DNA of 64,000 nt from assembly GCA_965218295.1 (NCBI GenBank), contig CBDCKN010000003.1, forward strand, positions 416,001 to 480,000, written 5' to 3'. A program made the translations under genes and the position numbers. Below, piece by piece: positions 2,151 through 34,237 of the stretch; the stretch's first letter is position 1, and each line of letters opens with the position of its first letter. The notes under the pieces were generated by a model that had not been told where the DNA came from, did not search any database, and saw nothing but the letters and a program-made list of their open reading frames with translations. This stretch comes from Longimicrobiales bacterium. Lineage in GTDB: Bacteria; Gemmatimonadota; Gemmatimonadetes; Longimicrobiales; Gaopeijiaceae.

Positions 2151-2822
2151 CTAACCCAGACTGTGAATGCCGCATTCCGTTCGGACCCGTCCCCTCCACC
2201 TGCCAGCCCGCTCGTGCTCGCCTGAGGACACGGGCGTCGTCAGAGGCTCGTCGCCGACGCTGGCATAGCCGAGATCATGCAGGGGGTTGTACGGCACATC
2301 GTTGGATCGAATGAACGACCAGACTTCGTCACCGGTCCAAGACGCCAACGGATTGATCTTCACTCGATGGTTGATCTCTACATGTTGGAGACCGGCACGG
2401 CTGGACGACTGGTCCCGTCGCCGTCCCGTGATCCAACCCTGGACGCCACGGAGGGCCCGCTTCATGGGTCTGACCCTGGTGAGCTCATGAAAGTGATCGA
2501 GATCCCGCTCCCAGAGACGCTCCCCGTGGGCCCGCTCGAAGTCTTCTCGAGACTCGGCTGCCCGGTAGAATCGCACGTCGAGGCCGTAGTGGGCCTTCAC
2601 CCGCTCGGCATGCTCGAGAGTCTCGGGGAAGTGATGAAGGGTGTCGATGAACACGACCGGGACTTCTGGCGCGATCTCGGCCAGGAGGTGGATAGTCACC
2701 ATTCCCGTGGGCCCGAAGGACGTGCATAGGACGAGGTGATCCCTTGCCACGTTCTCCACCGCCCACCGGATGATCTCCGAGGGATGCCAACGCTCCAACT
2801 GCGAGACCAGTGTCTCCGCCAT
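2151..2822 (-). CDS. cysH: Phosphoadenosine phosphosulfate (PAPS/APS) reductase
   Basis: TSFG, FIDTLHHFPET, WITGRRRDQ, KINPLASW, YNPLHDLGY, ERAGRW, C-terminal ECGIH; AAGGAG RBS before the ATG at 2822. Confidence 0.92.
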   Translation of the reverse strand: MAETLVSQLERWHPSEIIRWAVENVARDHLVLCTSFGPTGMVTIHLLAEIAPEVPVVFIDTLHHFPETLEHAERVKAHYGLDVRFYRAAESREDFERAHGERLWERDLDHFHELTRVRPMKRALRGVQGWITGRRRDQSSSRAGLQHVEINHRVKINPLASWTGDEVWSFIRSNDVPYNPLHDLGYASVGDEPLTTPVSSGEHERAGRWRGRVRTECGIHSLG

Positions 2823-2860
2823 CGTTCTCCTTGTGCTCCCCCGGGGTCGCCCCCGAGATG

Positions 2861-2900
2861 AAATAGAAAAAAGGACCGCCGGTGTGCTCCGGCGGCCCTT
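2861..2900 (-). terminator. Intrinsic terminator T2 in the cysH leader
   Basis: Minus strand AAGGGCCGCCGG-AGCACA-CCGGCGGTCCTT followed by TTTTCTATTT (12-bp stem, one G-U). Confidence 0.85.
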
Positions 2901-2917
2901 CCTGGCCCTGGTTCGCC

Positions 2918-2956
2918 AAAAAGAAGACACCACCGGGAGGCTCCGGTGGCGTCTTC
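2918..2956 (-). terminator. Intrinsic terminator T1 in the cysH leader
   Basis: Minus strand GAAGACGCCACCGG-AGCCTC-CCGGTGGTGTCTTC followed by TTTTT (14-bp stem, one G-U). Confidence 0.85.
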
Positions 2957-2980
2957 GGGACGGTCAGCGCATGATATGTA

Positions 2981-3052
2981 TCAGTGCGCCCCCCGATGCC
3001 CCACCGGGCTCGGTTGGCAACAACACCGACAACAACAGCATGTGAGTCGCAT
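2981..3052 (-). CDS. Cys-rich attenuator leader peptide MRLTCCCCRCCCQPSPVGHRGAH (23 aa)
   Basis: 7 Cys codons in 8 consecutive positions; GAAGGA RBS 8 nt before the ATG; lies between a promoter and two terminators upstream of cysH. Confidence 0.88.
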   Translation of the reverse strand: MRLTCCCCRCCCQPSPVGHRGAH

Positions 3053-3085
3053 TGACAGCGTCCTTCGTAGTGGCTTGAACAGGTA

Positions 3086-3113
3086 ACACTAACCAGCGGG
3101 ATCGATCTGTCAA
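3086..3113 (-). promoter_or_regulatory. Sigma70-type promoter for the cys leader/cysH
   Basis: Minus strand TTGACA-N16-TAGTGT. Confidence 0.6.
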
Positions 3114-3206: not shown

Positions 3207-3302
3207 GTGAACCAGCACGCACGACCGCTACGCCGACCGCGAAACCAACGTCCGTTTCCTAGGGAGCAGGCGCGTCGTGTCTTGCGTGGGGAGAACCGAT
3301 AG
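3207..3302 (+). CDS. Putative Arg/Pro-rich leader peptide MNQHARPLRRPRNQRPFPREQARRVLRGENR (31 aa)
   Basis: GTG start with GGA 6 nt upstream; 10 Arg and 4 Pro codons; its 3' part can pair with the segment leading into the downstream terminator. Confidence 0.5.
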   Translation: MNQHARPLRRPRNQRPFPREQARRVLRGENR

Positions 3303-3333
3303 AGCCACCTTCGACCCCAGAAACGCGACGTTC

Positions 3334-3368
3334 GCCGGCCTCCGTTCCAGGAGCCGGCTTTCTTGTTT
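3334..3368 (+). terminator. Intrinsic terminator directly upstream of proC (attenuator)
   Basis: GCCGGC(C)TCC-GTTCCA-GGAGCCGGC followed by TTTCTTGTTT. Confidence 0.7.
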
Positions 3369-32785: not shown

Positions 32786-34237
32786 GTGAAGGCCGATACT
32801 GGTTTTCTGCTCTGCATATCAGGCCTGGGAGCCGCCCTGGTGGTCGCCGCAGCCGCACCGGCCCCGGTCGAGCCCGCGGTCGAATGGACTCCCCCGGAGG
32901 CCACGGTCCGGTACGATGGAGTCCGGAGGGTCTTCGAGGCCAAGTGCGTGAGCTGCCATACGGGGTCGGACGCCGCCCGGGGCCTTCGCCTGGACTCGTG
33001 GGAGAGCACCATCGCCGGTTCGGACGAGGGTGAGGCCGTCATCGCGTACGACGCCGCTCGCTCGCTACTCATCGAGCTGACGACCAAGCTGGTGGGTGGC
33101 CCCCACCCGGCCGAGCTCGACGCCGAAGGACTCACAGAGGATGAGGTGTCGCTCCTAAGCGCATGGATCGACGAGGGAGCCCCGTCGGAATCCGGAGAGA
33201 TCCCGTACGCCGACGCGAACCAGCTCCTCTATGCGGCCAACCAGAGCGAGGCCATGGTCTCGGTCATCGATATGGAGACCAACCAGGTCGTCCGCATCGT
33301 CGACCTACAGACGCTGGGCCTTCCGGAGAACGCCTCGCCCCATCACATCGCCGTGGAGCCCGACGGATCGTACTGGTATCTGTCCGTCATCGCGGCGAAC
33401 CAGATCCTCAAGTTCGATCGCCAAAACCAGCTCGTGGCAAGAATCGACTTCGTCAGGCCGGGTCTGCTGGCGCTGGATCCCGAGGGTGAGAATCTCTACG
33501 CCGGCCGCTCCATGGCTGCCGTTTCCCCGCCCCAGGAGATCGGAGTGATCCGCCGCTCGGACATGAGCTTCGAGGAGGTTGGCATCTTCATCCCGAGACC
33601 TCACGCCCTGGCCGTCCAGCCCGGTACCGGAACCGTCTATACCGCCAGCTTGGCCGTCAATCAGATCGCGTCCTACTATCCGGAAGACGAGGCGCTGGAG
33701 CTCACTGACCTCGGGGGTGACCGGCCCCACACCCTCATCGGGTTCGCGACGTCGCCCGACGGTCGGTGGATGGTGGGCACGACCCAGCTGACCGCAACGG
33801 TCTTCGTGTTCGATCTCAAGCGGGCACCCGACATGACTCCGGTGGACACCATCGCCGTGAATGCCGCTCCCTGGCACCCGGTGTTCACGCCCGACGGCCG
33901 CTGGGTCTACGTCGGGAACAACTGGGACAACACGGCGAACGTCATCGACATGGAGACGCGGACCCTCGCCAAGGTCATCGAGGGGAACGGTCTGGCCCAG
34001 CCCCATGGGGCCGCGGTCTCGCCGGACGGAAGCTTCGTGTACATCGGCAGCCGGAACCTCGAAATGCCCGAGGGCCACAGCAAGTACGGCCACATGTACA
34101 CGCCACGCTACGACACGGGCGACAACGCGCGGGCGGGGACCGTGGTCGTGATCGACACCGAGACCCAGGAGATCGTGAAGGTCATCGAGATCGAAGGGTA
34201 CGGTGCCGGGCTGGGGACCGCGGCCCGGATGCCCTGA
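32786..34237 (+). CDS. Secreted monoheme cytochrome c (planctomycete-type) fused to a YVTN/YncE beta-propeller
   Basis: Signal peptide, KCVSCH, LSAWIDEGA, repeated PH..A..PDG..Y blades. Confidence 0.8.
   Translation: MKADTGFLLCISGLGAALVVAAAAPAPVEPAVEWTPPEATVRYDGVRRVFEAKCVSCHTGSDAARGLRLDSWESTIAGSDEGEAVIAYDAARSLLIELTTKLVGGPHPAELDAEGLTEDEVSLLSAWIDEGAPSESGEIPYADANQLLYAANQSEAMVSVIDMETNQVVRIVDLQTLGLPENASPHHIAVEPDGSYWYLSVIAANQILKFDRQNQLVARIDFVRPGLLALDPEGENLYAGRSMAAVSPPQEIGVIRRSDMSFEEVGIFIPRPHALAVQPGTGTVYTASLAVNQIASYYPEDEALELTDLGGDRPHTLIGFATSPDGRWMVGTTQLTATVFVFDLKRAPDMTPVDTIAVNAAPWHPVFTPDGRWVYVGNNWDNTANVIDMETRTLAKVIEGNGLAQPHGAAVSPDGSFVYIGSRNLEMPEGHSKYGHMYTPRYDTGDNARAGTVVVIDTETQEIVKVIEIEGYGAGLGTAARMP

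Follow-up and report, generated by a model that had tools for sequence, protein, structure and literature searches.

The cysH gene in the window, by which we mean the whole 64,000-nucleotide stretch of DNA that was analyzed, is preceded by what is likely a cysteine-sensing leader-peptide transcription attenuator, and we think it probable that a single ribosome there controls two serial terminators (T1 and T2) through a domino of RNA pairings. This is the mechanism to which we commit. With cysteine plentiful, the ribosome would reach the leader stop codon and the antiterminator arm at 3007-3001 would be covered; T1 would form, and T2 would stop the polymerases that leak past it. Under cysteine shortage, a ribosome stalled in the Cys run at 3040-3017 would leave the leader arm free to take the 5' arm of T1. 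The released T1 3' arm, together with its U tract, would pair with the emerging 5' arm of T2, neither terminator would form, and cysH would be transcribed. The anatomy of the locus, its conservation, and the complementarities among its segments are described below together with computed alternative folds; we infer that the leader is translated, that ribosomes stall on it, that both sites terminate, that repression is tighter, and that the window copy uses the domino rather than the relay that is weighed against it.

Table 1. Features of the cysH leader region, in the order of transcription
Feature	Coordinates	Strand	Basis
Likely sigma-70-type promoter (TTGACA, 16 nt, TAGTGT)	3086..3113	-	Motif upstream of leader in 12/12 genome loci
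Shine-Dalgarno-like GAAGGA, 8 nt 5' of leader ATG	3061..3066	-	Sequence; translation inferred
Leader ORF, 23 aa, MRLTCCCCRCCCQPSPVGHRGAH	2981..3052	-	Sequence; in-frame Cys codons in 27/27 homologues
Predicted antiterminator 1 (core 3007-3001 of leader arm with core 2949-2943 of T1 5' arm)	2942..3010	-	MFE of nascent RNA
Terminator T1: 14-bp stem 2956-2923, 6-nt loop, U5 at 2922-2918	2918..2956	-	Terminator scan
Predicted domino hairpin (T1 3' arm with U tract, then spacer and T2 5' arm)	2889..2936	-	Folding
Terminator T2: stem 2903-2868 and U-rich tail	2861..2903	-	Terminator scan
cysH, PAPS/APS reductase family, 223 aa; gene under predicted control	2151..2822	-	PF01507, E 3e-49

Seven of the 23 leader codons specify Cys, and codons 5-8 and 10-12 make up the Cys run. 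The leader invoked by the earlier note on this DNA, which had proposed the domino, lies outside that note's own coordinates, at 3052-2981. A TTGAC...TA---T motif was found upstream of the leader in 12/12 genome loci. The consensus promoter scan missed the likely main promoter at 3113-3086, whose -10 box is too weak for it; the same scan found no consensus promoter in the interval between T2 and cysH, which is a weak test given that miss. The region folds better than its shuffles (z -5.9), and the nascent RNA ending at 2942 reaches an MFE of -37.6 kcal/mol as antiterminator 1. A search of the window against Rfam (T-box, riboswitches, and catalogued leaders) gave 0 matches at the gathering score. 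The closest titled relatives of this cysH are from Gemmatimonadota, several of them labelled Longimicrobiales. A G+C-rich hairpin also lies at ~2837-2858 on the minus strand, between T2 and the cysH ribosome-binding site, and is absent from the alignment of relatives.

The earlier note described two look-alike terminators, and both were recovered: a terminator scan of the 181-nt stretch on the minus strand returned two hairpins, T1 and T2, against 0.2 +/- 0.4 in shuffles. The 17-nt gap that it placed between them corresponds to 2917-2901, which separates the T1 U5 from the T2 arm as first drawn. Its pairing of the T1 3' arm with the T2 5' arm was also reproduced, with 13 pairs, of which three are G-U (read directly from the sequence), and one bulge (-18.2 kcal/mol); the whole predicted domino hairpin of the window copy, folded alone, reaches -27.8 kcal/mol. 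With 15-nt arms, the cross duplex has an energy of -20.1 kcal/mol, which is equaled by 127/6972 ordered pairs drawn from the 84 terminator-like hairpins of the same genome, and 0/82 other 5' arms in that genome bind the T1 3' arm equally well. With the shorter arms trimmed by the scanner, the duplex comes to -14.9; the mean is -9.3 (sd 3.7), which puts it only ~1.5 sd out. In the window sequence alone the cross helix is thus moderately beyond chance, and comparative evidence is the real test. Tandem terminator pairs are rare in this genome, with only two found, T1-T2 being one of them. We rejected the idea that the look-alike hairpins stem from a repeat spread through the genome or from a REP-like element; the core motif occurs in only 4/84 terminator-like hairpins, and two of these are T1 and T2.

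Homologues were collected by a DNA search of 314 family genomes and by a leader-only pattern in metagenomes. The metagenome pattern excluded T1 and T2, and the invariance of the leader arm is partly built into it. The search gave 32 loci (12 from genomes of three genera and 20 metagenome contigs) with 27 distinct cores. Both T1 and T2 are present in all 27, as are in-frame Cys codons in the leader, numbering 4 to 7; the layout is thereby conserved in a group of Gemmatimonadota that are uncultured. At least six U's in 8 nt follow T1 in 26/27 and T2 in 25/27, and the spacing from the T1 3' core to the T2 5' core is constant at 33 to 36 nt.

The eight positions of the T2 5' core pair with the T1 3' arm in 215/216 cells and with T2's own 3' arm in 182/216, although the homologues are mostly close kin (mean column identity, 78%), and such paired-cell counts are therefore not independent. 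The difference is sharpest at the central core position, where the cross pair is kept in 27/27 and T2's own pair in 3/27. A MAFFT alignment of 26 rows gave 97.6% pairing for the cross helix versus 84.1% for T2's own stem. Locus L058, which has a 23-nt deletion, was omitted from alignment A1 and kept in the anchored counts; L061 is one column out of register in that alignment, and the covariation and MAFFT pairing counts are lower as a result. Parsimony on the tree assigned 7 changes, at two positions, to the T2 5' core and 14 to the 3' core. All variants of the 5' core retain cross-helix pairing, and the 3' core has eight forms. In genome G144, both sides of the cross helix have changed (A-U to G-C), leaving T1's own stem with an A.C mismatch. 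Covariation of the cross helix was not above that of shuffles, with one both-sided pair change and 113/500 shuffles as high. The core of antiterminator 1 was paired in 182/182 cells and had no covariation among the homologues. Read from the sequences, the asymmetry of conservation says that the T2 5' arm would have a second partner; which partner that is, the asymmetry itself does not tell. Selection for a mismatch against G would likewise give A or G at the central position, and part of the signal is therefore explained by a weakened T2.

In order to compare the switch states, the RNA of each homologue was masked to mimic a ribosome either stalled or sitting at the stop codon, and nascent lengths were folded at equilibrium with an assumed footprint. 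When the ribosome is masked as stalled, the domino outcompetes T2 in 23/27 homologues. Under the stop mask, T2 forms in 23/27, and the domino forms despite it in 4/27. Both states came out correctly in 20/27 native sequences versus 72/540 in which T2's nine stacked pairs had been shuffled. The domino hairpin folded alone ranges from -16.8 to -27.8 kcal/mol over the 27 homologues. At the T1 snapshot, the antiterminator is ahead of T1 in only 9/27, so step one also depends on kinetics. An arm-swap control turned T2 off in 14/27 versus 23 for the native sequences; it was uninformative because the T2 arms are near-palindromic, and pair shuffling was used instead.

Both terminators could also be opened by a relay, a reading that we regard as unlikely though worth serious attention. 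Here, the leader arm would hold the T1 5' arm until polymerase clears the T1 U tract; T1 would then refold, and the leader arm would move on to the T2 5' arm. The leader arm does pair with the T2 5' core at all 7 positions in 27/27 homologues, and the relay accounts for conservation of the T2 5' arm as well as the domino does; however, the next two positions pair in 0/27, and the relay helix is limited to 7 pairs. In the window copy, the relay is the equilibrium state once the T2 5' arm is out (P 0.58-1.0 under the stalled masks), and its P is >0.5 in 5/27 homologues, whereas in 23/27 the domino is the lower in energy. The relay also leaves the change in the T1 3' arm of G144 unexplained, and a natural allele pair, present on one contig of run X3, shifts even a window-type sequence from relay to domino.

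A reading without coupling, in which T2 is a copy of T1 that acts as a leaky fixed damper on cysH and the cross-pairing comes from shared ancestry, seems improbable to us. The near-identity of the T1 and T2 5' cores is what duplication predicts, the mismatch at the center of T2 in 24/27 homologues would make T2 leaky, T2 forms at equilibrium regardless of the ribosome in the window copy and in G144, and the lack of significant covariation in the cross helix fits as well. A duplicate should nevertheless drift alike in both arms, yet the 5' core varies at its two positions only and always in ways that keep the cross helix, against the eight forms of the 3' core. Native T2 stems switch far more often than shuffled stems of equal composition, and a fixed T2 as strong as that of the window (~-27 kcal/mol, with a U6 tail) would nearly silence cysH. 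We give very little credence to a single working terminator, with the other hairpin a pause or folding aid in an ordinary attenuator that has extra segments, to which the his attenuator with its multi-segment register shift can be likened. The window T1 has only U5, followed by GGC, and contigs from the RNA libraries of one study, in which DNA is possibly present, pass T1 to 2902 and 2908 (2902-3063 in run X1 and 2908-3060 in run X6), one of them reaching into cysH (2613-3063, with a joint, in run X3). These contigs are assembled only, are uninformative on ends, strand, and level, and were counted as no support. Against a single terminator, U tracts are conserved behind both hairpins, an argument that is not clean, as these tracts are themselves paired in the cross helix.

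We return to the domino, for which the window copy is an exception. Its hairpins are longer than those of its relatives, perfect, and stronger, and it is one of four homologues, with G144, L058, and L063, in which T2 still forms at equilibrium under the stalled mask. In the window copy, the antiterminator beats the upper stem of T1 only when the free RNA starts between 3025 and 3007; otherwise, T1 wins. Given the usual ribosome footprint, free RNA would begin in this interval if a ribosome sat on the Cys codons, which fits stalling on the Cys run. Completion of the T1 3' arm makes T1 the more stable by 8 to 12 kcal/mol, and the barrier is estimated at 11 to 17 kcal/mol. At length 2886, when the T2 5' arm is out, the relay lies ~3 kcal/mol below the domino, with ~20 kcal/mol between them, and P(domino) at equilibrium is <=0.01. 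When the T2 3' arm is also out, T2 wins from either state over barriers of 9 to 15 kcal/mol. Since equilibrium favors the relay and then T2, the domino in the window copy needs kinetic trapping, and it would depend on antiterminator 1 outlasting the transcription of ~50 nt. In these models, persistence of antiterminator 1 would lead to the local domino and earlier refolding of T1 to the relay; by either route, one ribosome would govern both terminators. The domino switch of the earlier note is upheld for the family by conservation and folding models and stands on weaker ground for the window copy, where equilibrium prefers the relay. Contigs of runs X1, X3, X6, X19, and X21 show that close strains carry an allele at 2929, which strengthens T1 and the domino alike; one contig, from X3, also has an allele at 2926, with which the balance tips to the domino by ~1.5 kcal/mol. 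Separately, in runs X3 and X21, 55 other letters replace 18 at the start of cysH (2808-2827), representing a strain with a different N terminus.

Classical leader-peptide transcription attenuators, such as E. coli trpL and Salmonella hisL, are defined in the available parts of bioRxiv 10.1101/834739 and PMC5864092. Like them, as far as those parts describe them, the cysH locus has a short leader ORF in which codons for the pathway product are abundant, an overlapping antiterminator, and an intrinsic terminator before a biosynthetic gene; unlike them, it has two terminators on one leader, cysteine as the presumed signal, and a host in the phylum Gemmatimonadota. The sequence features that define the class were all found, namely, a Cys-enriched upstream ORF, a PF01507 gene, and two predicted intrinsic terminators, and the mutual exclusivity of antiterminator and terminator, with release by a ribosome on the control codons, was found by folding only. 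The nearest precedent for the layout is the ermK attenuator of Bacillus licheniformis, where, according to the accessible text of PMC4335068, one leader peptide precedes two adjacent Rho-independent terminators that are relieved by ribosome stalling. A single leader peptide and two adjacent intrinsic terminators are thus common to both, but ermK, in the same text, senses erythromycin-induced arrest and not a shortage of an amino acid. An arrest peptide of the ermK type, with an MRLR stall site before a resistance gene as that text has it, was not found at the cysH locus, where a poly-Cys leader precedes cysH. The two ermK terminators are, we presume, ~120 nt apart, versus ~53 nt at the cysH locus.

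Cysteine leaders have been described elsewhere. The uORFC-8-2 motif before cysS in Rhodobacterales is predicted to attenuate transcription by means of a cysteine leader peptide and an intrinsic terminator (PMC8632094, in the portion available); judging from that portion, it differs from the cysH locus in having two Cys codons, one terminator, and another gene and phylum, and it too is a prediction. In mycobacterial polycysteine leader ORFs, runs of Cys codons report charged tRNA-Cys, with experimental evidence for Ms5788 (available sections of bioRxiv 10.1101/834739 and PMC1262725). Those leaders, as these sections present them, act on translation, are leaderless, and lack a conserved intrinsic terminator; the cysH locus, with a Shine-Dalgarno-like site 5' of the ORF and two terminators 3' of it, is not of this type. 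Tandem riboswitches and attenuators place two serial decision points before one gene (PMC9481103; mgtCBR, PMC3641672; both in part), and in the parts available each decision point has its own sensor, whereas at the cysH locus one sensor would drive both. The window copy has no second Cys leader and no Rfam match that could provide a separate sensor for each terminator; the extra leader found in many relatives is of this tandem kind. In the rimP leader of some Gammaproteobacteria, two tandem terminators occur, the upstream one with a possible antiterminator (PMC2965389, available text). Unlike the cysH locus, that leader has no leader peptide, control by a protein was proposed for it, and no cross-pairing is described in the same text of PMC2965389.

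The earlier note knew of no classical amino-acid attenuator with such a layout. This held for amino acids, in that our literature search, which covered few subscription papers, found no printed case of an amino-acid attenuator with two coupled terminators; the antibiotic-sensing ermK, with two adjacent terminators in the available text of PMC4335068, narrows the claim. The same search returned no experimentally shown cysteine leader-peptide attenuator acting on transcription, only the predicted one. Three candidate precedents were set aside on the text available for each: tet(M) of Tn916, for which a second predicted terminator is mentioned and the leader peptide is questioned (10.1101/2021.03.24.436905; PMC3886932); Listeria Rli60, with one terminator; and the pLS20 zipper attenuator, also with one terminator (PMC13401043). 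Nothing on cross-paired terminators appears in the available parts of PMC11721399, PMC5418344, and PMC13236596.

The principle is classical and has a precedent in ermK; two terminators coupled to one amino-acid leader would be a variant. Repression is multiplied when terminators stand in series, at the usual price of one sensor apiece. Were a single ribosome to open both gates by a domino of strand exchanges, the leak would be approximately the product of two read-throughs, with no extra sensing parts, which, if true, bears on the evolution of attenuators and on the design of synthetic switches. We lean slightly toward the fuller reading, a natural one-sensor, two-gate switch in which the effect of one stalled ribosome passes through both terminators by strand exchange, in which selection has tuned the T2 5' arm to its cross partner over its own stem, and which exists in one-, two-, and three-terminator versions within one clade, the third terminator being added by a second Cys leader. 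The clade offers natural controls in its single-terminator sisters and its two- and three-terminator forms, which make a series for the gain in dynamic range.

A relevant cysH is carried by 47/314 family genomes, and among these, on the strength of their sequences, the predicted cysteine attenuator is family-wide. When 32 cysH loci of sister genera were examined with the same scanner, 28 had a single terminator hairpin, two had a weak, distant second hairpin, one had two leaders with one terminator each, and one was too short. Because the sister loci mostly have a single terminator, the twin terminators probably arose as an elaboration specific to one clade. A search for the two-terminator pattern in 401 genomes of the phylum gave matches in four genomes outside the family versus five control matches, without U tracts, and eight matches in viral contigs likewise lacked U tracts. 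A covariance model run against 150 family genomes and five chosen genomes gave strong matches only in known members.

Several further arrangements were noted in these genomes. A second, unrelated Cys leader lies between T2 and cysH in L024 (G001), L023, L025, L026, and L031 and in 12/20 metagenome loci; in the five genomes it is followed by a third terminator, and shortened remnants of it are present in G330, L058, and L059. The deletion in L058 takes out the lower antiterminator stem, and the predicted switch is lost there. L102 (G275) has two separate tandem Cys leaders before cysH, with one terminator each. In G001, the leader-cysH block is duplicated 26 kb apart (G001:C1 1719875 and 1745683), and the leaders are identical. 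In L103 (G337), ORFs that by sequence appearance are transposase-like and methyltransferase-like lie directly 3' of T2 and replace cysH, and in L104 (G335), the start of cysH is fused in frame to a sulfite-reductase-like ORF, cysH itself being absent.

Other leaders were seen in the genome to which the window belongs. At G000:C12 ~33400-33600 (minus strand), a sulfite-reductase gene and a likely siroheme synthase are preceded by another Cys-rich leader, this one having a single terminator. Next to the cysH leader, at 3207-3365 on the plus strand of the window, proC-proB-proA have in front of them a terminator-like hairpin and a divergent leader ORF rich in Arg and Pro (3207-3302). This is likely an arginine- or proline-sensing attenuator, and a homologue of the proC leader is present in G144 and G011 and absent from G001 and G002.
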